DNA from: Alphaproteobacteria bacterium | GTDB lineage: Bacteria; Pseudomonadota; Alphaproteobacteria; RF32; CAG-239 | Reading direction: 5' to 3' | NCBI GenBank assembly: GCA_017475525.1 | Contig: JAFVFH010000054.1 | Location: 1-50,954, forward strand | DNA length: 50,954 bases | Shown here: piece after piece, positions 2,921 to 46,516 of the stretch | Layout: the number at the start of each line of letters is the position of its first letter | Numbering within the stretch: the stretch's first letter is position 1 | Program-made: the position numbers and the translations under genes | The notes under the pieces: generated by a model | The model's input: only the letters and a program-made list of their open reading frames with translations | What the model was told of the DNA's origin: nothing | Database searches by the model: none

Positions 2921-3030
2921 TAACACACGCAAGCCAAGGCGGATTGCTTTTGATGAAAAGTTAAATTCGCTCCGGTGCCTTGAGAAATCAAAGCCAAAAG
3001 CTTGCGGAGGTTTAACCGGAAAAGAAAAGG
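2921..3030 (+). promoter_or_regulatory. rpsB 5' leader (S2 autoregulatory RNA)
   Basis: cacacgc...cggtgcc...gcggaggtttaaccgg in the long rpsB 5' UTR; resembles alphaproteobacterial rpsB leaders as recalled. Confidence 0.5.
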
Positions 3031-3039
3031 AATTTATAT

Positions 3040-3920: not shown

Positions 3921-4847
3921 ATGGCAGAAATTACAGCCGCTAAGGTTAAGGAATTAAGAGAAACAACCGGTGCCGGTATGCTCGATTGCAAAAAAGCTTT
4001 GGTCGAAGCAAACGGCGAAATGGAGCAAGCTATTGACTGGCTCCGCAAAAAAGGTTTGGCAACGGCTGCTAAAAAAGCTAGTCGTGTTGCTGCCGAAGGT
4101 TTGGTCGCCGTTAAGGTTGAAGGAAACAAAGGTGCTGTTGTGGAGGTGAATTCTGAAACAGACTTCGTTGCTAAAAACGACATTTTCCAAGAGTATGTTC
4201 AAGATGCGGCAACTGTCGCCCTTTTGAGTGACGGCGATATTGAGAAAATGAAGGCTTTCGGTTGCCCGAAATGCGGTAAGTCTTTTGGCGAACGTTTGAC
4301 GGATATGATTGCAAAAATCGGCGAAAATATGAATTTGCGTCGTGCCGCTGTTGTTGAAGTTCAAAACGGTGTTGTTGCTTCATACATTCACAGTGCTTTG
4401 AAACCCAACTTGGGCCGTATCGGCGTGTTGGTTGCTTTGGAATCATCCGCTGACAAAGAAAAATTAAATGAACTCGGCAAGCATATTGCAATGCATATTG
4501 CCGCTTCATCTCCGCTTTTCTTGGATGTTGCAAGCGTTGATCCGGCCGCTGTTGAACATGAACGCGGTATTTATGCCGAGCAAGCTCGCGCATCGGGCAA
4601 GCCTGAAAATATCATCGAAAAGATGGTTGAAGGTCGTGTTCGTAAATATTACGAAGAAGTTGTTTTGACGGAACAAGCCTACATCATGGACCCCGACAAA
4701 AAGGTCAAAGATGTGATTGCAGAAGCCGCCAAAGAACTCGGCACGGAAATCAAACTTTCTTCATATGTCCGCTTCAAACTTGGCGAAGGGTTGCAGAAGA
4801 AGGAAGAGGATTTTGCAGCCGAAGTAGCCGCTCAACTTCAAAAATAG
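3921..4847 (+). CDS. tsf: elongation factor Ts
   Basis: [29 protein letters not shown]. Confidence 0.99.
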
Positions 4848-5090
4848 CGTATAATGGCTAACTACTTGTAAGCTCTTGTGCTTATGTACCTTTTTGTACA
4901 CTGTGCACAAGAGCTTACTGCGTATTTAGCGCATTCTCCGCTATTTTTTAACAAAGGTATGGCGAGTTTAAGAGGTCCTGATAACTTTCAAATAATGGTC
5001 AACAGTTTGTAGGTATTCGTACTTATGTACCTTTTTGTACACTGCGCACAAGAGCTTACTGCGTATTTAGCGCATTCTCCGCTATTTTTT
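4840..5090. repeat. REP/RPE-like palindrome, family 2, tandem pair
   Basis: 4840-4948 is an imperfect ~110 bp palindrome (gtaagctcttgtgc/gcacaagagcttac). 4881-4949 recurs at 5022-5090 with 1 mismatch. Confidence 0.85.
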
Positions 5091-5146
5091 ATATTCAAAT
5101 AAATAAAGGCTTTGTGCGATTTTGTGAGTTTTAAGCTTTTGATTGT

Positions 5147-6580
5147 TTACCATAAATGATTATACAGATCATTTCGTTTGGATAGTTCTCTTTCTAAATA
5201 GGCACCGCCGAATTTTTCTTGAAGAGTTTGTTCTTGGGAAAAAACAGAAGTGCCGAGCCCGAGTCGATGAGAGTTCCAAGAGACACCTATTGCTTCTAAA
5301 ATTGTCGGAAACAAGTCGATTTGAGTGAATGTGCGATTTCTTTCCTGAAGATTAATATCCGTATTCAGAAACAAATTATAAATATGACGTTCATCAGGCA
5401 TTGAAAAATCATTGCCTTGTCGTAAATGGTCGCCCAGTAAAACAATAACCGTGTTTTGATAATAAGGATAGGATTGAAGAGTTGTGAGAAAATCGGCTGT
5501 TGCTTGTGCAGTGTGGTAAATCGTGTCATATTCTTTGTATGCCAAATGTGTATCTGTGGAAATTTTAGGGTCGTAATGATGATGCGTATCAATGGTGTTG
5601 ATAATGGCAACAAAAGGTTCTTTCATGCTCTTTAATTCGTTTGCGGCAATTTGAAAGACATCTGAATCACCATATCCCCATCCGCCGGCTCTTTGGTATT
5701 GAGGATACATTTTTTCGATATTTTGACTGTCTAAATATTTCTCCTGAAAACCGTTATCACATAAAAATTTTTTTTGGCCGGCAAAATTTGTATTAATTCC
5801 GGAAATAAAAAAAGTGTGATAATGGTTAGATGTTAAGATTTTGCCTAAAGTATATGTGTTTTTTAATTGTGTCAGATTTTTTCCGTATTGGTGCAATATG
5901 TCTATCGGAATAAGCGTTGTGGGAACGCCGCTGAATAAAGCAAGTATGGCAGGTTGTGTCGAGGTTGTGCCAAATCCGTTGGTGTAATTTTGAAAACTGA
6001 TACCCCGTGCTTGTATTGCTTGGAGCGGTGACAGAAGATTTGTTCCAAAAAAGGAAGTATTGCAGAAAGTTGTTTCAAAGCTTTCTAACAAAATGATAAT
6101 TAAATTTTTCTTTTGGGTCGGAAAAGTAAAATTTTGTTTTTCAGGTTCTACATAATTTTCTTCATAAAAAGTACTTTTCGGCGGAAAAATTTTTTCAGTC
6201 TTGGTCAGTAAAGTATGAATAGAATAAGTCCATATGATAAAAAAAGTGCCTAATATAAGGCAATTGATATAATTACTCTTTATATAGGACAATATTTTTT
6301 GAAAGACCGCCAGACGCATTATTTCAGGCAGAAGCAAGAAAGCCGTGCTATATGATGCCGAAGGTAATAAACAGCGAAAAAAATATGTTTCGATAAAATG
6401 ATAATCGGTTCCTTCTAAACCCGATAATAAAAAGAACAGAATTTGAGAAAAGTTTGAAAATGGGAATTGAACAATAATAAATTTTTTTGTTTCTAAAAAC
6501 AAAAAAATAAGAAAAAGAAGAAAAAAAGCGCAGATGTATGCCATTGCTTTTTTGATGCTTTTTTGTTTTTTTGCTGTCAT
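5147..6580 (-). CDS. LTA synthase / phosphoglycerol transferase (sulfatase-fold) membrane protein
   Basis: N-terminal TM segments; NLIIILLES, WGYGD, TIDTH, LGDH and DLFPTIL motifs. Confidence 0.85.
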   Translation of the reverse strand: MTAKKQKSIKKAMAYICAFFLLFLIFLFLETKKFIIVQFPFSNFSQILFFLLSGLEGTDYHFIETYFFRCLLPSASYSTAFLLLPEIMRLAVFQKILSYIKSNYINCLILGTFFIIWTYSIHTLLTKTEKIFPPKSTFYEENYVEPEKQNFTFPTQKKNLIIILLESFETTFCNTSFFGTNLLSPLQAIQARGISFQNYTNGFGTTSTQPAILALFSGVPTTLIPIDILHQYGKNLTQLKNTYTLGKILTSNHYHTFFISGINTNFAGQKKFLCDNGFQEKYLDSQNIEKMYPQYQRAGGWGYGDSDVFQIAANELKSMKEPFVAIINTIDTHHHYDPKISTDTHLAYKEYDTIYHTAQATADFLTTLQSYPYYQNTVIVLLGDHLRQGNDFSMPDERHIYNLFLNTDINLQERNRTFTQIDLFPTILEAIGVSWNSHRLGLGTSVFSQEQTLQEKFGGAYLERELSKRNDLYNHLW

Positions 6581-6603
6581 GTTTCATTTCCTTTTCTTCA
6601 ACC

Positions 6604-6808
6604 AAACAAAAACCCGACTTTTATTGAAAAAGCGGGCGGATGTTCGTCAACCAAAAGCAAATGAAATGGCTCGGTATTTTCGAGCGAAAGCCTTATATAA
6701 CCGACATCCGCCCTTAAAACAGGGGAATGTGTCGGCATATTTAAGGTCTTGCAATATGACCATTTGCTTTTAGGGCGACGAAGCCCAAAATTGTCATGTG
6801 ACAATTTC
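6604..6808 (-). ncRNA. putative structured leader/attenuator (copy D)
   Basis: 5' hairpin; closing stem ttcgtcg..taaaagcaaatg / catttgcttttg..tgacgaa; ggtc-atattgcaa-gacc hairpin; ataagg motif; catcc followed by terminator hairpin and U-run. Confidence 0.6.
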
Positions 6809-6919
6809 GATGTCAGTTTATTTTAATTTGAAGGAAAATCAAGCTTTATTTTGAAACGGTATCGAAAGCACAAGGAGTTTTTAGCGGATGTCTGAGAATT
6901 GAAAAAAACAATTTGAATG

Positions 6920-7994: not shown

Positions 7995-8054
7995 AAACAA
8001 TCTGTTTCATAATCTTATTGTTTTTTTAAGATTTCTTGTTTATCGTTATTTTCG

Positions 8055-8269
8055 TTAGGACAGCCCAAGTCCTGACAGGACATTGACAGTCTTGAATAAC
8101 ATGGGCAAACATAGCTTTTGTGTTACATTGTTAATGCAAAAGGAAGTTGCCATATTGGGCATCTCACCTGAAAAGGGTGGATGCCAGTGAATAAGGCATA
8201 TACCCAATAGCTGGGCTACTTTTCGTGTTATTCGTAGTGTCAACGTCCACCCGCCTGAAAAAGCGGGTG
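8055..8269 (+). ncRNA. putative structured leader (copy E)
   Basis: 5' hairpin; gga-ca-ttgaca..tgaataaca / tgttattcg-tag-tgtcaa-cgtcc; gtgaataaggc motif; final hairpin cacccgc/gcgggtg. Confidence 0.6.
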
Positions 8270-8375
8270 AAATTGCGAGAAAATATGGCAAAAAAATAAT
8301 CAACCTCGCTAATTAAGTGATGATTTGTCGGCTGATTTTTGTTGCAAATTTTTTATCAAGCGATATTTTAAGAAC

Positions 8376-17917: not shown

Positions 17918-17946
17918 TTGACTTTTTTCCTTTGGTGTGGCATCAT
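17918..17946 (+). promoter_or_regulatory. promoter of leader A
   Basis: TTGACT-17 bp-CATCAT; same design at 40047-40019 (-) and a decayed copy near 46728-46700 (-). Confidence 0.7.
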
Positions 17947-17951
17947 TAAAG

Positions 17952-18111
17952 TATAACCGAAATGGTTATGGTGTCTAGTTGGCATTTTCGAAACGTATAC
18001 TCCTGCTAACGGGAGTTCTTGATATAAGCATATTTATGACGAATAAAAGAGGCTGCGTTTCGACAGTTAACTAGCTCCCACTTTGGATATTTTCTGAAGT
18101 GATTTTTTTTT
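17952..18111 (+). ncRNA. putative structured leader/attenuator (copy A)
   Basis: Colinear with copy B, with compensatory stem changes; ends in ctcc, hairpin and T9. Confidence 0.75.
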
Positions 18112-18162
18112 CAGTAAACATCATCCTGAGCTTGTTTCGGGATCTAACAAAGGAGAAAAACG

Positions 18163-19422
18163 ATGAGATACAAATTTTTAACAGCTGTCTTAGCAGCCTC
18201 AACAGCCCTATCTGATATAGCCATGGCAACAATTCCCGAAGGTTGTGTTGATAAGGGCGACGGCACTTGCATCTATCGCGAAAAAAATGTGACGTCGCAA
18301 TATGACACCTCAAGCGGATATATCCTTCAAAAAACAGTTTTAAGTGCCGCACAAGGCGGCGAAGGGGTTGGCGTCAGCACCAATGTTTATAACTATAGCT
18401 ATGATGCTAACGGAAATGTGAGCGAACTTTCTCTGACCCAATATCCGGATGGTTCTGATAAAAGCCAAAAAACCGTTGTGCAATACAGCTACGATGAAGA
18501 TAACAATTTGATTTCAGCAACGCGCCAAAGTTATGAAAATTATGACAACCCTAATGTCAACAATTTCGCTTTTAATGAACTGAATATGTTTGACGGACCT
18601 CACATGCTCTATACATCTGAGCCGTCGACAGATCCCTATGGCAACCCGCAGACTTATGTTTATGACACGCACGAAAACGGAAACAAAACAAAAACTTATT
18701 TGTGGGATGAGAATAACGGAGAGGTTTATACATATAATAGCGATGGCATATTGATAGGCTATGGCTATATACAAAACGGCGAAACGAATAATGTCTACAC
18801 ACTCGATAATAACGGTGCGCTGCTGTCCGTTGGCGCTCAAGCTGGAACTGTAATAGACGTCACTTATGATGAAAACGGCGGCTTTTCAGCCTCAGAAAGT
18901 TACGGTCAGTCAAACTCATACAAATTAACCATTGACCCGAACTATACTTTGCCTGACGGGAGAGTCGTCACTTTGCAAACGATGTGGCAGGAAAAAGGAT
19001 GGACAGGAGAACCTTTAGAAACAGTGTCCGCCTTTGCTTATCTTCAAGAAGGCAAAGAGATGATTGTAGACGGCTATACAAATTATGATAAATATGGCAA
19101 TCCGACATACATTCGGATGTACTATTACACAGAAGACGGTCAGCCGGAAAATATAACAAACAAGTATTATTCTTACACCTATGACGAAGACGGACAGATA
19201 TTAACCTGTTCAGAAAGAAATAATTCGAAAGATCCATGGGCGACTTGCAGTGAAAACAGCGGTTCAAACTCGAATGTTTCCGGCGGCGGTACAAATTCGG
19301 AAAATTCGGAAACAAGCGGTTCTTTTGCGCCTACCCGCAATCCAAAACGCATTTATACCGTTGAAGAAGCCGCGGCACTTTCAAAAGAAACAGGCAACAC
19401 CTTCCGTCTTCGTTACAAATAA
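18163..19422 (+). CDS. secreted protein with YD-like repeats, Ser/Asn/Gly linker and conserved C-terminal tag
   Basis: AAGGAG RBS; signal peptide; YSYDANGN, YSYDEDNN and YTYDEDGQ repeats; ends KRIYTVEEAAALSKETGNTFRLRYK. Confidence 0.85.
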   Translation: MRYKFLTAVLAASTALSDIAMATIPEGCVDKGDGTCIYREKNVTSQYDTSSGYILQKTVLSAAQGGEGVGVSTNVYNYSYDANGNVSELSLTQYPDGSDKSQKTVVQYSYDEDNNLISATRQSYENYDNPNVNNFAFNELNMFDGPHMLYTSEPSTDPYGNPQTYVYDTHENGNKTKTYLWDENNGEVYTYNSDGILIGYGYIQNGETNNVYTLDNNGALLSVGAQAGTVIDVTYDENGGFSASESYGQSNSYKLTIDPNYTLPDGRVVTLQTMWQEKGWTGEPLETVSAFAYLQEGKEMIVDGYTNYDKYGNPTYIRMYYYTEDGQPENITNKYYSYTYDEDGQILTCSERNNSKDPWATCSENSGSNSNVSGGGTNSENSETSGSFAPTRNPKRIYTVEEAAALSKETGNTFRLRYK

Positions 19423-20572: not shown

Positions 20573-23500
20573 CTAAAATCTATACTTCAGCCCGAAATCA
20601 AAACGGCTGCGATATTCACTGTCAACATACGATAAGAACCCGCCGTAAATTGACACATCACCTGCATCGTAAGAAAGCGTTGAGCGCAAAACGGCATAAT
20701 CATCACGGCGCTTTTCGTCGCTGATTTTGAATGTGCCGTTCATTCCATTCATTTGAAGCTCCATATCATACGGATTGCCAAATTCGTGATAAAGCATGGC
20801 TCCTGCCATCAATTTAAGCTGATGGTTCTTCGCAATTTTCTTTTCTTTTGAAATATAGGCGCCAAAGCCCAATTCTGCCGAATAAGTTCTCTGATTTGCA
20901 CTCGAAAGGCTGTATTGTTTTGTATCTTCTTTGAGTTTTGTTTGATAAGCCGTTAAATGAACCGCTGTGGCCGGTGAAAGTTCAAAACCACCGAAGGAAA
21001 GCGGATAGCGCACTTCACTTTCAAGTCCGAAGGCGCGTTTTTCAATATGTCCGTCATAGCTTCTGCTCTCATAGCCGTTGCGGTCATATGTGCCGTAGAG
21101 ATACGACATCTTTGGTGAAAACACCATATTAAACCCGTTTTTCTTGAGCTGATACGGCATCAAAAGTTGAAAATTTTTGCTTTCTCTTGAGTTTTTCAGA
21201 TGTCCGTCATCCGAACGCAACTCCGAAATCGCCAAACCGACGCCGAAATGCCCTCCGGCCATATTCGTTCCCGAAAGTGCATATTTCGTGTTTGAACCTC
21301 TGTCTTGAAACACTTTCGGCGCCACTTCACCCGAAAATGAAAATTCCCCGTCTTTCAACGCAAAAAGTTTGCTGTTCAAATCAAAGTTAAGCTCCTTTTG
21401 CATAATCATATCCTCATCGGCAAAGCGCGAAATCACATTTTGTCCCGTCAAATCACGCATGGCATTCTCAACCTCATTCAAACTTGATTTTGTTTTCAAA
21501 TTCGCAAATAGAGCTTCATTATTTTGCATATCATAATTCTTTTCCAAAAAGCTTGCCACCGTGCTGTTTTCAACCACTTCATTGAAATCTTTTTTCGTTA
21601 ATACGACATCGTTTCCTTTAAGCTCAGCGTCAAACAACACCGACTGAGAACTCAAATTCAAAGCGCTGGCATCTGATGTGTCAATTGCATTTAAGAGGGT
21701 ATAATTTTGCTCAAATCCGTTTTTGACCACATCACTTGAAATGCTCAAATTGCCCGTTATCGCAGGCGCACTGAAAGTTCCGTTCTGCGCAAGTGTTACT
21801 CCTTTGCCCAAACTTAATGCTTTTGTTGCGCTCACCAAACCCATATTTTCAAATTCGGCGCCACCTGTTAAATAAATGGCATATCCGCCGTCAGGGGTTA
21901 AACAGCCTGTTGACGTATAAGTCGGATTATCTTCCCAGTTCAGATCAATATTATTAATTCTGAATTGAAATTCGCCCGTGTTTGTGATTTTTGCGCCGTT
22001 TGTGGCATAAATGCCGTATGTTTTTTCTTTTGACGGTCCCGAAACCCAAATGCGTCCGGAGTTTGTGACCTTGCCGCCGTCGCTGTAAATGCCGTATGCG
22101 TTGCCTGTTGTTGACGTTACATTGATTTCATAGCGCTGTGTTGAGTTTTCAATCGTTCCGCCTTTATTATAAATACCATAGGCATCACCGCCCGCACTTT
22201 CAACTTCAAGTCCGCTGGTGTTTGTCAGCGTTGCCGTGCCGCTGTCCGATTGCGTCACATAAATACCAAAAGCATTGCCCGTTCCGCCCGTTGTTTTTGC
22301 AGAAATCACACGCCCGTTTGTCATTGTGCCGTCTTCAACATACGCCCCGTAAACATTGCCCGTTGCACTTTGTGCTTGAACGGAATAAACAAGCGTTGTT
22401 TCGCTGATGTCTTTGATGTTATTGATTGTTCCGCCTTTGGTGTATAAGCCGTATGCATTGCCGGCATCTGCCGATGACGCCACCTCACCGGAATTTTGAA
22501 TTGTCCCTAAAGAATAAAGTCCGTATGTGTTTCCGCTGCCTTGAGAATTGATGACACTGACAACCGAATCAATATACGAATACGTTCCTATTTTATTTTG
22601 ATTATAAATCGTGCCGTTTGTGCCGGATTGGTAAATACCATAAGCCGCACCGTTTCCTTTATTTGAAACATTAATTTCTGAATACACAATTGCTGTCGGT
22701 GATGTTTCTTCCGCACTGCTGTCATCAAACTCGGCCGTATAAATATCATTCCCGCCGAAAATACCGTAAACCCTGCCGTCGCCGACATTGTTAATTGAAA
22801 TTGTGCCGATGGCTTTGGCGGAACCTTGTGAAGCAATATCCGAAACAAGAATACCCGAGCCCTTGAGCTCCGCATAAACATTATAAATCGTATCCGCATT
22901 GTTTGAATAGAGCCCGTAAACCGTTCCGTCACTGTTGTTGTTGATGGAAATCGAAGATGTTTTGTTCATCACCAAAAAGTTTTCTTCAACTTTCTTCGTG
23001 TCCGTTTTTAAAACATCGCCGATCTCCGTGCTGTTATTGTCATAAACAACGTCATTAATCACATGTCCGGCAGTTTCACCGTTAAAATAATAGGCATTCG
23101 AATCTTTCACATAACCCTTCATGGTTGTGCCGTCCGTATCATACCAAATCTTGTTGCCGTCATCGTCATACTTATAATCCGGCTCCGTCACGGTTGCCGT
23201 TGTCGGCTCAATTGAAAAATATCCGTTTGCAAACTTATCCTGATCCAAACGATAATCATGCGGTGTTTGCGCCGCGTCATAAAACAGACCGTAAACATCA
23301 GCATAATTGTTGTTTGTGAGCGTTAATGTGCCTGCTTCATTGTAGTTTGAGTTAATGTCCGGATTACCGTACACATCTTTGCTTTGTTTTTTAACGCACA
23401 TGCCGGTGCTGTCCTTGCCGTATCCGTTGATACACTCATCGCAAAGCGTTCCGCCGTAACCGTTTTCGCACACACATTTTCCGGCCTGTTGCGTTCCGTG

Positions 23501-24142
23501 CGCACATTCAAGCGTTTTATAACATAAATCTGTGCCGTAGTTGCCGTATCCTGCTGCACAGGTATTGCATTTTTCGCCCGCATACCCCGTATCGCAAACA
23601 CAAACACTTTCCGACCAATGTCCGTGCACACAATTCGGATCCGTGCTTGAGCCGCCACCGCCTCCGCCGCCTCCGCCACCGAGCGCAATGGCTGTTCCGG
23701 CACCTGCCGCCACAACACCGGCACCGATTAAAGCCTTTGTTTTCCAGCTCATAGAGCTCATCTTAGCGGCATTTGCAGCAACCGCCGTATCCATATTACG
23801 CACCGGATTGATGACCACCGATTGCATAAATTCGCGATATCCGTTAATTTCCCACGTGCAGGGATGTGAAGGGTTTGCTCCTGATTGCAAAAATGATTTA
23901 TAGGCTCTTCTGTCGCGGTTTCTTGCCGCCACGCACAACCCCGTGTCACCGCTTGAGTTGACCGAATCGATATTAAGCCCGCGCGAACGTGCCGCATTGA
24001 TTGCCGAAACATCACCTCTTTGAGCAAGCGCATAAAGTGCACGAAAGCTTTCGGGAGAAAGAGCCTGCAAATAAGCCTCTGCCCTAAAGCTATAAAAACT
24101 TAAAACACAAGCAGCAACAAAACAAAAACGCCTCAAAATCAT
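20573..24142 (-). CDS. autotransporter-like surface protein (ankyrin-like, EGF-like, beta-helical passenger, beta-barrel)
   Basis: Signal peptide; GDTGLCVAA..GANP; poly-Gly; CxCxxGYxGxxC repeats; AYGIY repeats; C-terminal GLKYRF. Confidence 0.8.
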   Translation of the reverse strand: MILRRFCFVAACVLSFYSFRAEAYLQALSPESFRALYALAQRGDVSAINAARSRGLNIDSVNSSGDTGLCVAARNRDRRAYKSFLQSGANPSHPCTWEINGYREFMQSVVINPVRNMDTAVAANAAKMSSMSWKTKALIGAGVVAAGAGTAIALGGGGGGGGGGSSTDPNCVHGHWSESVCVCDTGYAGEKCNTCAAGYGNYGTDLCYKTLECAHGTQQAGKCVCENGYGGTLCDECINGYGKDSTGMCVKKQSKDVYGNPDINSNYNEAGTLTLTNNNYADVYGLFYDAAQTPHDYRLDQDKFANGYFSIEPTTATVTEPDYKYDDDGNKIWYDTDGTTMKGYVKDSNAYYFNGETAGHVINDVVYDNNSTEIGDVLKTDTKKVEENFLVMNKTSSISINNNSDGTVYGLYSNNADTIYNVYAELKGSGILVSDIASQGSAKAIGTISINNVGDGRVYGIFGGNDIYTAEFDDSSAEETSPTAIVYSEINVSNKGNGAAYGIYQSGTNGTIYNQNKIGTYSYIDSVVSVINSQGSGNTYGLYSLGTIQNSGEVASSADAGNAYGLYTKGGTINNIKDISETTLVYSVQAQSATGNVYGAYVEDGTMTNGRVISAKTTGGTGNAFGIYVTQSDSGTATLTNTSGLEVESAGGDAYGIYNKGGTIENSTQRYEINVTSTTGNAYGIYSDGGKVTNSGRIWVSGPSKEKTYGIYATNGAKITNTGEFQFRINNIDLNWEDNPTYTSTGCLTPDGGYAIYLTGGAEFENMGLVSATKALSLGKGVTLAQNGTFSAPAITGNLSISSDVVKNGFEQNYTLLNAIDTSDASALNLSSQSVLFDAELKGNDVVLTKKDFNEVVENSTVASFLEKNYDMQNNEALFANLKTKSSLNEVENAMRDLTGQNVISRFADEDMIMQKELNFDLNSKLFALKDGEFSFSGEVAPKVFQDRGSNTKYALSGTNMAGGHFGVGLAISELRSDDGHLKNSRESKNFQLLMPYQLKKNGFNMVFSPKMSYLYGTYDRNGYESRSYDGHIEKRAFGLESEVRYPLSFGGFELSPATAVHLTAYQTKLKEDTKQYSLSSANQRTYSAELGFGAYISKEKKIAKNHQLKLMAGAMLYHEFGNPYDMELQMNGMNGTFKISDEKRRDDYAVLRSTLSYDAGDVSIYGGFLSYVDSEYRSRFDFGLKYRF

Positions 24143-31349: not shown

Positions 31350-31661
31350 CTAGGCATTGTCCCTGTCATAGATCTCTTTGTCGATAAGGTGCGGGAGCTG
31401 AAAATACAATCCGTTCCAGACGACATCGACTTCGTCGCCGACCTTGAGACCTTCTTTGTCAAAGCCGTAGATGCCTTGATAGAGTTTGCCATCCTTCTCG
31501 AAGGAACACAGGAAGCAACCCTCTTCATCCTCAAAGTGATAGAGGAGCTTGGCTTTACCGACAAATGTGCTCGGGGTGCTTGTTTTACTGCGGCCAAAAA
31601 TCATGATGACCAGAGCAATCACGAAGATTGCTACAAAAATAATTGTGATAATTTTTTCCAT
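31350..31661 (-). CDS. small membrane-anchored hypothetical protein
   Basis: N-terminal TM helix plus a short beta-rich domain. Confidence 0.65.
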   Translation of the reverse strand: MEKIITIIFVAIFVIALVIMIFGRSKTSTPSTFVGKAKLLYHFEDEEGCFLCSFEKDGKLYQGIYGFDKEGLKVGDEVDVVWNGLYFQLPHLIDKEIYDRDNA

Positions 31662-31889
31662 ACGTATTGGGGTTAAAATTATATAAAACTATGGTCAGTT
31701 TACATTTTTTTTGTCAAAAGTCAAACAAAAAATGATTTCTTTTTGCTTTATTTGTGTTTTTTTAATTTGCAGAGGAGTGGCTGTTTTGTTTGTGCGCCAA
31801 GAGCGCTGAGGGGGAGTTTTTATTTTTATATCAAAAGATATATCATTTTTTGCTTGCCATTTTGATGAAAATAGACTATCTTTAGTATT

Positions 31890-32073
31890 GGATGGTTGAA
31901 ATAGCCGTCTATGGACCAGAAATCCATTACAAGAGGTCGTGTGCAAGACCTAAAAATGCATATTCCAGTTTTTGGACTGGAAGGTGGCTGAATAAGGAAC
32001 TTCCATTCCAAATAGGTTACGCTATCATCTTGTAATAGTTTCTGCTTCCAGTCGCTTTTATAGCGATTTTTTT
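31890..32073 (+). ncRNA. putative structured leader/attenuator (copy C)
   Basis: Follows TTGCCA-17-TATCTT (31854-31882). GAAAT-loop hairpin; cagaaa..ttacaaga / tcttgtaa-tag-tttctg; ggtc-gtgtgcaa-gacc; tgaataagg; cttcc, terminator and T-run. Confidence 0.65.
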
Positions 32074-32104
32074 GTTGAAACAAATTTTGGAAAGGAAACT
32101 TAAT

Positions 32105-32743
32105 ATGAAAAACAATCAAAATGGTCGTTCAATGGTCGAAATGCTCGGCGTTTTGGCTATTATCGGTGTGTTGTCAGCAGGTGGTTTGGCAGGCTATTCA
32201 AAGGCTATGTTCAAACACAAATTAAACAACACAATGGATCAACTCACAATGCTTGTGACTAACATCCGCACGATGTATGGCACGCAAGACAGCTACAAAG
32301 ACTTGAGCAACGTTCAAGCCGTTAGTTTGGGCATCGTCCCTGCCGCTATGAAGGGGACTGCTAAAGCAGCAGTTGCACCTCAGGGCAAAGAAGGTGAGGA
32401 TGGCTATGTAGCCGGTAGTGCTGCCAGCCAAGAACTGGTAAACCCGTTCAAAGGCACTGTGACAATTGAGCCTTCCGGCGCAACAGCAAAAGGTGATAAC
32501 AGGGCATTTACAGTGACGTATGCCGGTCTTCCGACAGAGGCTTGTATTGCTCTTGTGACAGCCGATTGGGGCGCAGGTGCTGGTTCGGGCTTTATCGCCG
32601 TTGCCGCAGGCAGTGAAAAAATTGAAGATGCTCTTGTCGGAAGCGGTCTCGGTGGTCGTGCTGAAGGTGCGGCTTATTCCGTTGGCAATGCTATCAATGT
32701 TTGTGGCTCGACAACGAACACAGTTGCATTGAAGTTCTATTAA
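32105..32743 (+). CDS. type IV pilin (PilS/type IVb-like globular domain)
   Basis: Prepilin-like N-terminus GRSMVEMLGVLAIIGVLSAGG; NPFKG, GLPTEAC and C-terminal C..NT motifs. Confidence 0.85.
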   Translation: MKNNQNGRSMVEMLGVLAIIGVLSAGGLAGYSKAMFKHKLNNTMDQLTMLVTNIRTMYGTQDSYKDLSNVQAVSLGIVPAAMKGTAKAAVAPQGKEGEDGYVAGSAASQELVNPFKGTVTIEPSGATAKGDNRAFTVTYAGLPTEACIALVTADWGAGAGSGFIAVAAGSEKIEDALVGSGLGGRAEGAAYSVGNAINVCGSTTNTVALKFY

Positions 32744-32785
32744 TTTCCATTTTCAAAAATTTTTTTCAAGTTTGTAAACCAACCA

Positions 32786-32817
32786 GCCGCACATTCTCGG
32801 ATGTGCGGTTTTTTTTT
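32786..32817 (+). terminator. intrinsic terminator
   Basis: gccgcacat-tctcgg-atgtgcggt followed by a T-run. Confidence 0.8.
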
Positions 32818-36967: not shown

Positions 36968-38779
36968 TTATGACATTGTTGAAAGCATGATTTTTTGGAA
37001 AATCTGTGCGGGGATTTCGCCACCGGTGACGTTTTTCATCGGTGAATTATCGTCATTTCCGACCCAGACGGCAACAACATATTGTTTTGTAAAACCGACA
37101 AACCAAGCGTCACGATAGTCTTGCGAAGTCCCTGTCTTGCCGGCGACGAATGCGGGAAGTTTGGCGCGCTTTCCTGTGCCGGAATTGACAACATTTTCAA
37201 GCATTTTTGTGATTTTTTGAACTGTTTTCTCATCTAAGACTCGGATAGGCTCATCTAAGGTGCGTTCATAAAGTTGTTTGCCGTCTTTGGAATATATTTC
37301 CGAAATGGCATAGGGCCATGCGGCATATCCGCCGTTTGCGATGGAAAGATAGGCGGTTGCCATATCAATCACTTTGACTTCCGATGAGCCGAGCGCTAAC
37401 GACGGAATTTTCTTTAATGGGGTGGTGATGCCCATCTTTTTGGCGTTTTTGATGATGTCATTTAAGCTGAAATGGCGGCTCAAGTTAACGGTTGCAAGGT
37501 TCAGAGAGTTGGTAAAAGCAAAATTTAAGCTCACATCACCGTAGTGCTTTTTGTTATAATTTTCGGGTTTCCATTTGCCGACGGTTACGGGTGTGTCGGA
37601 GATGATGTCATCCGGCTCAAAACTGTGTTGAAGCGCAGTAATGTAAACAAAAGTTTTGAAGGCAGAACCCGGTTGACGCAAGGCTTGTGTGGCGCGGTTG
37701 AACTGGTTTTTTTGATAATTGATGCCACCAACCAAGGCTTTGATGGCGCCTTTATAATCCAAAATAACAAGAGCGCCTTCCGTGACGTTGTTTTTGGCAT
37801 TGTCAGCAACGGTTTGACGCAAAATTGTTTCTGCTTTTTGCTGGAGATCTTGATCTAAGGTTGTGCTTACATAAATATCTTGGTCGCGCTCGCCGATGTA
37901 GTCATTGACCTCAGAATAAACCATGTCGGCAAAGTGTTTTGCCCCTTCAACTTTGAAGGAGGTTGTGTCATGAAGGGGTTCTTTTTTGGCTTTTTCAAAC
38001 TCGCCTTCGGTGATGGTGCCGTGTTTGAGCATTATTGCCAAAACTGTTTGAGCGCGGTCGGAGGCGTTCTTTTTGCTGTAAATCGGGTTGTAACGTGACG
38101 GGGCTTTAAGCATTCCCGCAATAACCGCCGCTTCTTTTAGGCTTAAGTCGCGTGAGGATTTGCCGAAATATTTATTTGCCGCCGCTTCAATACCGTAAAC
38201 GCCGGCGCCTAAATAAACACGGTTCAGATAGAGCGTTAAAATCTGCTCTTTTGTGAATTTTTTTTCAAGCCAAAAAGAAATCAAAAGCTCTTGAACCTTG
38301 CGCTTAACGCTTTTTTTGGGAGTTAAGAAGAGGTTTTTTGCCACTTGTTGTGTGATGGTGGAAGCGCCTTGGGCATAGCGTTTTAAGAAGATGTTGGCGA
38401 TGGCGGCACGGGTAAAGCCGATGATGTCAAAGCCAAAGTGAGCATAAAAACGGCGGTCTTCAACGTCAATAATGGCAGCAGGGACATAATAGGGCAAATC
38501 TTGTAAATAAACAACCGATGAAAAGCTGTTGCCGAATGTTTGAATTTCGTTGCCGTTTTCGGCGATGACGGTTGTTGACGGTTGGCGCGTTTTTGAAAGC
38601 GCAACTTCAATATCGGGCAAAGTTGCGTAGCAATACAAAACATATGACGCTATGAGCGCAAAAATTGAGAAAGCGCTGACAAGAAAGACTTTAATCAGTT
38701 TTTTCTTAAATGTTTTTTTTGTGTTTTTTTTGCGTTTTTTAGGGGTGCGCTTTGATGTTTTTTTTGCTTTTTGAACCAT
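36968..38779 (-). CDS. class A penicillin-binding protein (PBP1A family)
   Basis: EDRRF, GASTITQQ, SAFK, SLN and KTGT motifs; start reassigned to 38779. Confidence 0.93.
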   Translation of the reverse strand: MVQKAKKTSKRTPKKRKKNTKKTFKKKLIKVFLVSAFSIFALIASYVLYCYATLPDIEVALSKTRQPSTTVIAENGNEIQTFGNSFSSVVYLQDLPYYVPAAIIDVEDRRFYAHFGFDIIGFTRAAIANIFLKRYAQGASTITQQVAKNLFLTPKKSVKRKVQELLISFWLEKKFTKEQILTLYLNRVYLGAGVYGIEAAANKYFGKSSRDLSLKEAAVIAGMLKAPSRYNPIYSKKNASDRAQTVLAIMLKHGTITEGEFEKAKKEPLHDTTSFKVEGAKHFADMVYSEVNDYIGERDQDIYVSTTLDQDLQQKAETILRQTVADNAKNNVTEGALVILDYKGAIKALVGGINYQKNQFNRATQALRQPGSAFKTFVYITALQHSFEPDDIISDTPVTVGKWKPENYNKKHYGDVSLNFAFTNSLNLATVNLSRHFSLNDIIKNAKKMGITTPLKKIPSLALGSSEVKVIDMATAYLSIANGGYAAWPYAISEIYSKDGKQLYERTLDEPIRVLDEKTVQKITKMLENVVNSGTGKRAKLPAFVAGKTGTSQDYRDAWFVGFTKQYVVAVWVGNDDNSPMKNVTGGEIPAQIFQKIMLSTMS

Positions 38780-38953: not shown

Positions 38954-39829
38954 TTATTTATAGCGCAGTTTGAAGGTGTTGCCTGTTTTTTTAGAAACAA
39001 GTGAGGCTTCTTCTATCGTATAAAAACGCCTGTTCTCTCGTTTGCCGGATGTTGTGACAAGTTTTCCTTTATTGTCAAACACATAGGTCACACCATTGAC
39101 TTGTTTTGTTGTGGCTTTGATTGATTTGAGCTCGCCATAACCTGCCGCTTCTAAATTTGCGTCGCATTTTTTTGTATCTCCCGTGCAATAGATTTTGAGA
39201 TTTTCTAAATCAACACGCATATTTTCACCGTGCTCGGTAAAAATATGTCCTAAGGCGGTTTTGTCGCTGATGGTTAGGGTTAAAAGACTTTCACATGCGC
39301 TTAAAGTTGCAGAACCTAAGTTTGTAACAGAATCAGGAATAAAAACGTCTGTCAGTGACGTTCCGCGAAAAGCCTCAGCAATGTCTGTCACGGAAGATGG
39401 AATATTAATTTTTTTTAAGTCGGACCAGTTAAAAGCCGCAGTATCAATTTTGGTCACGGAATCCGGAATAACAACTTCATTAAGTATAGCGCCATAAAAA
39501 GCATTAGCGCTGATAGTTGTTATTGATGAAGGGATTTGAAGTATGCCCTCATCCTTAATACCATGAAAAGCTTGCCAACCTAAATCTTTGATGGTGTCTT
39601 CAATCACAATATTACGGATATCTTGACCACGCCATGGTGCCAATATTCCTGTACCATTAGACCAGCTTCCGATATTGCCATTATTACCTGTGCCGCGAAT
39701 CGTTAAAGTGCCATTGACAATTTGGTATTCGCAATTTGCCGTATTGCCCTTGGCATCTGTGCCGCAAGCTTCCCACGCGTTGGCGTTAAAACTTGCAAGT
39801 ATTGCTAAAATCAAAACTGTTTTTTTCAT
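38954..39829 (-). CDS. secreted BspA-type (LRR_5) protein with conserved C-terminal tag
   Basis: Signal peptide; IPSSITTI, IPDSVTKI and IPSSVTDI repeats; ends RRFYTIEEASLVSKKTGNTFKLRYK. Confidence 0.9.
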   Translation of the reverse strand: MKKTVLILAILASFNANAWEACGTDAKGNTANCEYQIVNGTLTIRGTGNNGNIGSWSNGTGILAPWRGQDIRNIVIEDTIKDLGWQAFHGIKDEGILQIPSSITTISANAFYGAILNEVVIPDSVTKIDTAAFNWSDLKKINIPSSVTDIAEAFRGTSLTDVFIPDSVTNLGSATLSACESLLTLTISDKTALGHIFTEHGENMRVDLENLKIYCTGDTKKCDANLEAAGYGELKSIKATTKQVNGVTYVFDNKGKLVTTSGKRENRRFYTIEEASLVSKKTGNTFKLRYK

Positions 39830-40013: not shown

Positions 40014-40158
40014 CTTTTATGATGCCACATCAAACGTTAAAAGTCAAATAAAAAAGGTTTTAATTATGTGTTTTTTGAGCTTTTCATATTAAAAAAGTTT
40101 GTTATATTGTTAAATATGGAAGCGGCATATATGTGCCTGATGGCACAACGCCGGCTTT

Positions 40159-46189: not shown

Positions 46190-46457
46190 TCGTGAGTTCG
46201 AGTCCTGTTCCTTATCCCATAAAAAAAGCCCACTTAAAAGTGAGCTTTTTTATATGGGGCGGATTATGAGACTACTTCGCATAACACTTCGTGTTAGCTC
46301 GTTCACTGCGCTCATCGGCAAAGCCGATCGCGATGCTTCCGCCTCGCTTTCGCTTGTAGTCAAACTCACTTTTTCGTGAGTTCGAGTCCTGTTCCTTATC
46401 CCATAAAAAAAGCCCACTTAAAAGTGAGCTTTTTTATATGGGGCGGATTATGAGACT
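46190..46457. repeat. 84 bp exact direct repeat including the tRNA-His 3' end and terminator
   Basis: 46190-46273 is identical to 46374-46457. Confidence 0.95.
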
Positions 46458-46516
46458 CGAACTCACGACATCTGGTACCACAAACCAGCGCTCTAACCAA
46501 CTGAGCTAAATCCGCC
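46439..46516 (-). tRNA. tRNA-His (GTG)
   Basis: Anticodon arm ctggt-ttGTGgt-accag; G-1:C73; encoded CCA. Confidence 0.97.

Follow-up and report, generated by a model that had tools for sequence, protein, structure and literature searches.

A structured leader before a type IVb pilin gene of a small-genome alphaproteobacterium, a member of a large uncatalogued RNA family with terminator-switch anatomy

How can a pilin gene be expressed when a hairpin with the appearance of an intrinsic terminator stands between its promoter and its start codon? The question is raised by positions 31854-32104 on the plus strand of a 50,954-nucleotide (nt) stretch of DNA, contig JAFVFH010000054.1 of Alphaproteobacteria bacterium (assembly GCA_017475525.1). 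This whole stretch is the window referred to below, and positions are counted along it unless another contig is named; it belongs to a genome of 1.44 Mb in 87 contigs that is 85% complete. The region, here called leader C, comprises a sigma-70-like promoter, a structured leader of ~185 nt, an intrinsic-terminator-like hairpin and a ribosome-binding region. We find that leader C genuinely belongs, as a C-type member, to a large family of leader RNAs that is uncatalogued and has the anatomy of a terminator switch. From this anatomy we infer that it probably attenuates transcription in cis, as a member of a new RNA family, by competition between a sequestor helix (P5), an antiterminator helix (P6) and the terminator.

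Leader C lies between a small divergent open reading frame (ORF) for a membrane protein (31350-31661, minus strand) and a 212-amino-acid ORF (32105-32743, plus strand), and its neighbours in the window are housekeeping genes. The signals around the leader are the following:

31854-31882, plus strand: sigma-70-like promoter-like site, TTGCCA (31854-59), a 17-nt spacer and TATCTT (31877-82), from a consensus scan
32089-32107, plus strand: ribosome-binding region GGAAAGGAAAC and the pilin ATG at 32105, read from the sequence
32105-32743, plus strand: type IVb pilin gene, 212 amino acids, ATG at 32105; Pfam PilS 5.3e-13, Bundlin 1.1e-10
32785-32817, plus strand: terminator-like hairpin 3' of the pilin gene, 11 pairs followed by a T-run, from a consensus scan

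Transcription is predicted to start near 31889-31891, and relatives carry a promoter-like site in the same position, directly before the first helix, P1, as judged by eye. The assignment of the downstream ORF as a type IVb pilin follows from its PilS and Bundlin matches; its prepilin leader reads MKNNQNG/RSMVEML, and the product starts with MKNNQNG/RSMVEMLGVLAIIGVL. Only ~30 nt separate the T-run of the terminator-like hairpin from the pilin start codon, and the consensus scan found no promoter-like site between the two. The 251 nt of the region fold better than all of 200 shuffled versions (z = -4.5). An earlier note on this DNA had described a structured leader, a terminator hairpin at 32050-32073 and a pilin gene behind it, and each of these is where it was said to be.

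A second copy of leader C, 91% identical, directly precedes another pilin gene on contig C20 of the same genome, and the regions upstream of pilin homologues in eight relatives contain these elements too, with helices that differ in their letters. The helix statistics refer to 42 C-type sequences aligned to R1, a model that was built from five copies at genus level and whose structure was drawn by hand. Its nested helices (P1, P2, P3, P4, P5, P7, P7a and the terminator) are paired in 94% of the cells of this alignment, and the covariation score reaches 0.657, compared with 0.244 in shuffled alignments (none of 500 reaches 0.657) and 0.06-0.09 when the partners are slid. The alignment is fitted to the R1 structure and hence biased toward its helices; despite this, the nested helices are beyond doubt, given how the slid controls score and how many double changes there are. 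Helix P6 and the pseudoknot helix PK1 are outside R1, so that the alignment is not fitted to these two. Along the leader, the elements are arranged as follows:

31891-31909, plus strand: P1 hairpin, GAUGGUU / AGCCGUC with loop GAAAU (31898-31902); 96.6% paired, 7/7 pairs changed on both sides (n=42)
31912-31926, plus strand: P2 hairpin, UGGA / UCCA, with loop CAGAAA (31917-31922) as the 5' strand of PK1, from the covariation alignment
31927-31934, plus strand: P3 5' strand UUACAAGA, a long-range helix with 32028-32035; 97.3% paired, 8/8 pairs changed on both sides
31935-31950, plus strand: P4 hairpin, GGUC / GACC; 94.9% paired, 4/4 pairs changed on both sides; in most C-type copies, not in the A-type described below
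31965-31980, plus strand: P5 hairpin, CCAGU / ACUGG (31965-69 with 31976-80), proposed to sequester the antiterminator strand; 95.4% paired, G-U pairs being frequent, -4.5 kcal/mol
31975-31983, plus strand: P6 5' strand GACUGGAAG, partner 32045-32053, proposed antiterminator pseudoknot; outside the model yet 99.1% paired, duplex -13.4 kcal/mol
31984-32020, plus strand: P7 / P7a hairpin, its A-rich internal loop conserved (UGAAUAA 31989-95, AAAUAG 32010-15); P7 97.1% and P7a 100% paired, 4/5 and 4/4 pairs changed on both sides
32022-32038, plus strand: P3 3' strand UCUUGUAA (32028-35), from P3 covariation, with conserved flanks CUA (32022-24) and UAG (32036-38) that form a possible short helix, P8, 94.4% paired
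32039-32044, plus strand: PK1 3' strand UUUCUG, partner the P2 loop 31917-22; outside the model, ~80% paired, 5/6 pairs changed on both sides in the C-type
32045-32053, plus strand: P6 3' strand CUUCCAGUC, from P6 covariation, its last four bases AGUC also the base of the terminator stem in the minimum-energy fold
32050-32073, plus strand: intrinsic-terminator-like hairpin AGUCGCU-UUUAU-AGCGAUU (32050-68) with T-run 32067-73, from a consensus scan; -7.0 kcal/mol, 99% paired, 4/5 pairs changed on both sides

Because P6 crosses both P3 and PK1, the fold is a double pseudoknot. Compensatory changes in P3 are seen even between the two paralogues of this genome, and two P6 pairs are changed on both sides among the C-type sequences. 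P8 is nearly invariant, and covariation gives no verdict on it. The letters of the P7/P7a internal loop are conserved in both the C-type and the A-type, whereas the loops of P1 are highly variable across the alignments. The GAAAU loop, in which the earlier note had seen a link between leader C and the A-type leader at 17944-18114 (leader A), does occur in both (31898-31902 and 17961-17965), but the agreement is coincidental, given how widely P1 loops vary.

The anatomy of a switch lies in the central strand that P5 (31965-69 with 31976-80) and P6 (31975-83 with 32045-53) have in common. Where the central base of ACUGG is altered, from U to C in six sequences or from U to A in three, the P5 partner and the P6 partner are both altered to match, and P5 and P6 are, to judge from this three-way covariation, both kept by selection. 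At three positions, P5 has G-U pairs in 15, 11 and 6 of the 42 sequences where P6 stays Watson-Crick, so that the sequestor is weaker than the antiterminator. P6 in turn overlaps the terminator in all 42 C-type copies: the minimum-energy terminator hairpin takes four bases (AGUC) of the P6 3' strand in 36 of them, three bases in five and seven in one, that is, three or four bases in 41/42. In leader C, the terminator hairpin amounts to -7.0 kcal/mol when complete and to -0.7 kcal/mol as the remnant left when P6 holds AGUC. The two states, P5 (-4.5) with the full terminator (-7.0) versus P6 (-13.4) with the remnant (-0.7 kcal/mol), are close, before the costs of the pseudoknot loops. Leader C thereby combines two features of riboswitch-type elements, a covarying structured fold and mutually exclusive terminator and antiterminator helices, and the proposal that read-through into the pilin gene is controlled, made in the earlier note, is plausible in view of a built-in antiterminator helix that overlaps the terminator.

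The course of events may be pictured as follows. Transcription would start from the promoter at 31854-31882, and the first ~160 nt would fold into hairpins P1, P2, P4, P5 and P7, which the long-range helix P3 would close. As the 3' tail emerges, UUUCUG would dock on the P2 loop, forming PK1 and placing the invading strand beside a free AAG toehold. The adjacent CUUCCAGUC could then invade P5 via this toehold, yielding the 9-base-pair (bp) pseudoknot helix P6, which would remove AGUC from the foot of the terminator stem and let the polymerase continue into the pilin gene. Were P5 to persist, the full terminator would form and transcription would stop at the T-run 32067-73, leaving a leader RNA of ~185 nt. 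The balance may be tipped by a small ligand, by a protein such as Hfq, or by the leader RNA itself.

Other routes to conditional read-through were considered. Leader-peptide attenuation was rejected: a frame of 47 codons starts at ATG 31892, but the paralogue has only a truncated version and copies whose P1 contains no ATG have none, as judged by eye. A search for a specialised NusG paralogue of the LoaP/RfaH kind in this 85% complete genome found only one NusG N-terminal domain. The four available RNA-library runs consist of assembled contigs only, with three to five short pieces each in X8, X12 and X20 and none in X19, and RNA ends, strand and level are not visible in such contigs. One assembled contig of 509 nt from X12 spans 32011-32295, across the terminator and into the pilin gene, with ten differing letters, which attribute it to a close relative; it is compatible with read-through but weak as evidence, DNA carry-over being possible.

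Several observations weigh against an attenuator. Of 41 A-type sequences, 31 have P6 and terminator overlapping by only one or two bases and three have no overlap at all, which weakens the switch logic for this subtype. Since P6 far exceeds P5 in strength, the RNA might always reach the read-through fold and never be a regulated switch. The controlled genes have no common metabolic theme that would point to a ligand, and the ~100 copies in a 1.44-Mb genome are far above those of any riboswitch that we know of. Individual leaders depart from the scheme as well: a copy elsewhere in the window (8047-8278) has no T-run, and in one relative (genome G010, locus L014), 205 nt upstream of a pilin gene, the leader keeps P1, P2 and the terminator but has lost the core from P3 to P7, a natural deletion variant.

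How far the RNA family extends bears on whether these sequences function as RNA at all. Full-length R1 matches at E <= 1e-5 are present in 104/121 genomes of the bacterial family and in 22/23 of its genera, with up to 20 per genome. Outside the family, they occur in 8/149 genomes of other families of the class, all eight of them small (0.9-2.0 Mb). An exact-pattern scan of the genomes of 185,579 species returned at least 118 loci. Among the matches listed (80 loci), nearly all come from metagenome-assembled genomes labelled Alphaproteobacteria (or proteobacterium, Azospirillaceae, Rhodospirillales) with isolate or contig names pointing to the ruminant or human gut; the same 80 loci include one Nocardia, probably a chance match, and two labelled Eubacteriales. 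Two further models were built, R2 for the A-type, from 16 copies of the present genome, and R3 for the C-type only, from the 42 sequences. R2 finds 87 matches in this genome at E <= 0.01, 84 of them with at least 95 bits, and has matches in 61/99 other genomes of the family; together with ~12 C-type copies found by R1 and R3, this amounts to ~100 leaders in 1.44 Mb. So many copies per genome, before genes that belong in part to expanded pilin and leucine-rich repeat (LRR) families, are what would be expected of a selfish repeat resembling miniature inverted-repeat transposable elements, or of a by-product of gene-family duplication, with no function as RNA. This explanation is disfavoured and hardly credible: the sequences are highly diverged with pairing kept by compensatory changes, every copy points at a gene start, the genes downstream come from at least seven unrelated protein families, and the element is conserved in 22/23 genera and in the eight genomes of other families.

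The genes behind the leaders are of several kinds. A downstream ORF was found for 45 of the 47 C-type leaders examined, with the start codon 3-31 nt after the model match in 42/45; the ORF encodes a pilin in 22 cases and something else in 23. With a near-duplicate and a longer reading of the same ORF set aside, 21 of the 23 non-pilin ORFs were scanned against Pfam. The scan identified four outer-membrane beta-barrels, one BspA-type LRR protein above the cut-off and one below it, two HTH_3 regulators and a weak third, and one each of a sulfatase-family protein, a PEGA protein, a glycosyltransferase 8 and an N6 methylase, whereas 8/21 had no family above the cut-off (one of them with only a weak MORN match). 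Pilin genes and surface cargo such as outer-membrane barrels and LRR proteins do stand behind the same leaders, as the earlier note had anticipated. A tandem was observed on contig C79 (39054-39260 and 39332-39536; locus L035:1501-1707 and 1779-1983), where two complete C-type leaders with their own terminators, 72 nt apart, precede a 132-amino-acid gene without a Pfam family.

In the present genome, about 25 pilin-like loci were identified, along with three T2SSE-type ATPases and one prepilin peptidase. A leader match lies within 260 nt upstream on the same strand in 13 of the 25 (four C-type, nine A-type), and two more pilin loci are at contig ends. As observations in their own right, ~25 type IVb pilin-like genes make a very large family for 1.44 Mb, with near-identical N-termini (GRSMVEMLGVLAIIGVLSAG) and divergent C-terminal parts, and one of them directly follows a T2SSE ATPase gene (C47:13314-14237).

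The order of promoter, leader, terminator and start codon is constant throughout, and the leaders always point toward the gene start. This layout has to be set against another explanation, namely that we are dealing with a stand-alone gene for a small RNA or with an element of RNA stability or processing, with a constitutive terminator, pilin made from leak-through or another promoter, and alternative pairings that are mere folding intermediates. A promoter and terminator of its own, the very high copy number, a resemblance to a described small RNA (see below) and the small overlap of P6 and terminator in the A-type would all suit such a gene. Still, we regard it as decidedly unlikely, given that the T-run is only ~30 nt from the start codon with no promoter-like site found there, that orientation and distance to the downstream gene are constant, that both competing helices, P5 and P6, appear to be kept by selection, and that the terminator overlap is present in 42/42 C-type copies.

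Four other leaders are present in the window, which was scanned with R2 and R3 with the filters off:

6602-6814, minus strand: C-type variant sister leader with P6 letters GGGCGGAUG / CAUCCGCCC, before the sulfatase-family gene 5147-6580; R3 57.9 bits
8047-8278, plus strand: divergent sister leader with no T-run behind its last hairpin, before a SIR2-family gene; R3 29.5 bits
17944-18114, plus strand: A-type sister leader before the gene for a 419-amino-acid secreted protein (at 18163); R2 162.1 bits, R3 30.4 bits
39846-40021, minus strand: A-type sister leader before the BspA-type LRR protein gene 38954-39829; R2 133.4 bits, R3 32.8 bits

In the leader at 8047-8278, before the gene for the SIR2-family deacetylase, the last hairpin (CCCGC / GCGGG) overlaps the leader's own P6 strand; this copy may act on translation or be decaying.

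The A-type is shorter (~170 nt), has no P4, forms P6 from GGGAGU / GCUCCC and places CUG...CAG around the P3 3' strand; some C-type copies, for instance C63:42445 and one on C9, are without P4 as well. Pairing in 41 A-type sequences amounts to 93.1% for PK1, where 6/6 pairs are changed on both sides, and to 98.5% for P6. The two types share P1, P2 with PK1, the long-range P3, the competition of P5 and P6, P7 and the terminator, and the letters GAxAUAAG / CGAAUAA in the loop and AGUU after P3 recur in both. The inclusion of leader C in one architectural family with the other leaders of the window, as the earlier note had it, holds: R3 matches all four at 29.5-57.9 bits, compared with 18.9 bits for the best decoy, the reverse strand of leader C itself (the next best scores 15.6), and both pseudoknots occur in both subtypes. 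The further idea that leader C bridges the subtypes was borne out in one direction, in that the C-type model detects the A-type leaders, but not in the other, since leader C ranks sixth in the window under the A-type model, with only 12.0 bits (E 0.46). The shared architecture is a stronger argument for one family than cross-detection.

Does leader C belong to a known class? Rfam 15 at its gathering cut-off reports only two tRNAs and the rpsB leader in the whole window, and at E up to 10 the region 31650-32150 has only five weak, unrelated matches of 12-28 bits. Among 20 C-type loci from the exact-pattern scan, by contrast, five match the core of RF02221 (sRNA-Xcc1) over its full length and on the correct strand, with 33.3-40.3 bits and E from 4e-4 to 0.016. 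Nothing was found by RF02221 in the other 15, the best score of all is 40.3 against a cut-off of 53 bits, leader C itself has no match at E up to 10, and 19 further loci of its genome have none at E up to 1. The alignments (model positions 1-87) cover the P6-P7-P8 core in L138, L133 and L149, three of the matching loci; in leader C, the corresponding elements, located by eye, are at 31975-32053. The layouts agree element by element: the ~9-bp closing helix of sRNA-Xcc1 corresponds to P6, its hairpin with an A-rich loop to P7/P7a, its second hairpin, CUA...UAG, to P8, and its junction strand to the PK1 strand, followed by a U-rich tail; the loop of P8 is, in the alignment, the P3 3' strand.

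PMC12189769 and the title of Chen 2011 describe sRNA-Xcc1 as a trans-acting regulatory small RNA located on integrons, plasmids or islands. Related RNAs are c4 antisense RNA (RF01695), IsrK (RF01394) and P4 CI RNA. According to PMC4825925, IsrK is a short RNA whose own read-through form is its target, and P4 CI RNA causes premature termination by pairing with upstream and downstream sequences. As in these RNAs (PMC4825925), two single-stranded elements of the leader core pair with complementary segments upstream in the same transcript (P3 and PK1), and like IsrK, the leader ends in a terminator that would need read-through for the gene behind it. The differences are equally evident. sRNA-Xcc1 is a free-standing RNA, whereas the leader core lies in every case within a 5' leader, as its 3' part, closely followed by the start codon. 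In contrast to c4, P4 CI and IsrK, both targets in the leader are upstream, and P3 and PK1 lie within one fold. The leader also adds a 5' domain (P1, P2, P4 and P5) and a sequestor hairpin that competes for the closing helix, and it stands, in ~100 copies per genome, before chromosomal pilin and surface-protein genes rather than in phage immunity regions or integron cassettes. Leader C would appear to work somewhat like RNAs of the c4/IsrK class but does not qualify as one of them.

These likenesses raise the possibility that the leader is a domesticated antisense module of the c4, P4 CI, IsrK or sRNA-Xcc1 type. Its 3' domain (P6-P7-P8) would be the antisense RNA, the two loops of which pair with upstream segments, and the terminated leader would accumulate and act in trans on its own locus, the copy-specific letters of P3 and PK1 providing gene-by-gene feedback without a ligand. 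The full-length RF02221 alignments to the core from P6 to P6 in 5/20 C-type relatives, at 33-40 bits, and the matching layout agree with such an origin, as do the behaviours of IsrK and P4 CI RNA described in PMC4825925; the genome encodes one Hfq, and the P3 and PK1 letters do differ among copies in one genome. The same variation is, however, also expected from neutral drift under structural constraint. Moreover, the pairing of the two strands with the 82-nt region downstream of their own copy is not copy-specific, the longest matches being 5.3 and 5.8 bases, compared with 5.5 and 5.7 for the strands of other copies, and neither past the terminator nor at the ribosome site did any copy-specific complementarity turn up. 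With all RF02221 scores below the 53-bit cut-off, none for leader C or the 19 loci of its genome, and a setting of chromosomal surface-protein genes in place of prophage immunity regions, we judge this origin unlikely. No description of a leader of this kind before pilin or surface-protein genes was found by full-text searches of the literature or by looking up terms in the main texts of PMC5737381 and PMC8040213; their supplementary motif tables, which lay outside the search, could list it.

The attenuator that we favour also has functional parallels among regulatory leaders, none of them a match. Terminator and pseudoknot strand overlap in the ON-switches for ZTP and fluoride; in leader C likewise, the 5' foot of an intrinsic terminator has bases in common with the last pseudoknot strand, so that the fold would prevent termination. 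Leader C differs from them in its extra sequestor hairpin, which gives a three-state logic, in its far higher copy number and its non-metabolic genes, and in having no Rfam riboswitch match. In trp-type and T-box leaders, three competing segments decide whether an intrinsic terminator forms before the ribosome site, and T-boxes are multi-copy leaders of ~200 nt. Leader C is alike in its three competing segments just before the ribosome site and in being one of many leaders of about that length, but has neither a conserved leader peptide nor a specifier or an element pairing with the tRNA acceptor, and its antiterminator is a pseudoknot in a compact fold. Multi-copy leaders before pilin, adhesin and surface-protein genes are reportedly found among the cyclic di-GMP riboswitches of Clostridioides difficile. 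The gene setting of leader C recalls these two classes (cyclic di-GMP-I and -II, RF01051 and RF01786), but its architecture is unlike theirs, with no match in sequence or structure: neither model matches the window, the leader C region, the 20 C-type loci or the 19 loci of the same genome.

A special case of the attenuator is a true riboswitch, in which the double-pseudoknot fold with its A-rich loop (GAAUAAG / AAUAG) and junction would be bound by a small molecule or an ion (a global signal, for instance a cyclic dinucleotide, is one candidate) that makes P6 and PK1 more stable and switches pilins and surface proteins on. We consider this a real possibility, though one well short of even. A complex conserved fold with invariant unpaired bases in both subtypes speaks for it, the pseudoknot strand overlaps the terminator in the manner of the ZTP and fluoride switches, multiple copies before pilin and adhesin genes resemble what is said of cyclic di-GMP riboswitches, and the genome has one clear GGDEF match (160 bits) besides one weak match. 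Against these stand the lack of a match to any known riboswitch model, the unprecedented number, as far as we are aware, of ~100 copies per genome and a gene set without a transport or metabolic theme. No EAL domain was found in this genome, which is 85% complete and in which HD-GYP was not searched for. Furthermore, the same internal-loop letters occur in the consensus of sRNA-Xcc1, an RNA that PMC12189769 describes as a regulatory small RNA and not as a ligand sensor.

In a broader and rather doubtful conjecture, the whole surface repertoire of these gut and rumen Alphaproteobacteria with small genomes, ~100 genes in 1.4 Mb and among them about two dozen pilin variants, would be run by one RNA device derived from phage-type c4/Xcc1 antisense RNAs that became fused to their own targets and a terminator. 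The device would either sense one global signal, as a new and the most multi-copy riboswitch class, or use the P3 and PK1 letters as barcodes for independent switching, a form of RNA-based antigenic variation. Should the model of a switch hold, one uncatalogued fold would control pilins, outer-membrane proteins and LRR adhesins in widespread uncultured Alphaproteobacteria of the ruminant and human gut, in copy numbers far above those of any leader RNA known to us. It would also supply a natural library of hundreds of covarying double-pseudoknot terminator-switch variants, a link between phage antisense immunity RNAs and cellular gene control, and a handle on surface variation in minimal-genome gut bacteria. 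The present analysis contributes the C-type leader in front of pilin genes, the occurrence of two pseudoknots in each type, the three-way covariation, counts of the overlap and the comparison with sRNA-Xcc1 and c4.

Some further features of the window deserve mention. An AT-rich block of ~49 nt (GTYAAAAGTCAAAYAAAAAA...) recurs in three intergenic regions (31713-31761, 38691-38739 and 40036-40084) with 63-76% identity, and two of the copies adjoin leaders or divergent promoters. The ORF at 20573-24142 (minus strand, 1189 amino acids), whose sole Pfam match is a weak laminin-type EGF domain, probably encodes a large surface protein; no leader match was seen before it. The rpsB leader (RF01815, 45.4 bits) at 2924-3036, before the rpsB-tsf genes, is an ordinary feature. 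Just after an ORF ending at 4847, direct repeats of 100 nt each (4851-4950 and 4992-5091) are 88% alike and 141 nt apart, with a long palindrome in each. Finally, an identical 84-nt repeat at 46190-46273 and 46374-46457, 184 nt apart, consists of an apparent tRNA 3' part and a terminator-like hairpin and overlaps the tRNA called at 46442-46515 (minus strand).

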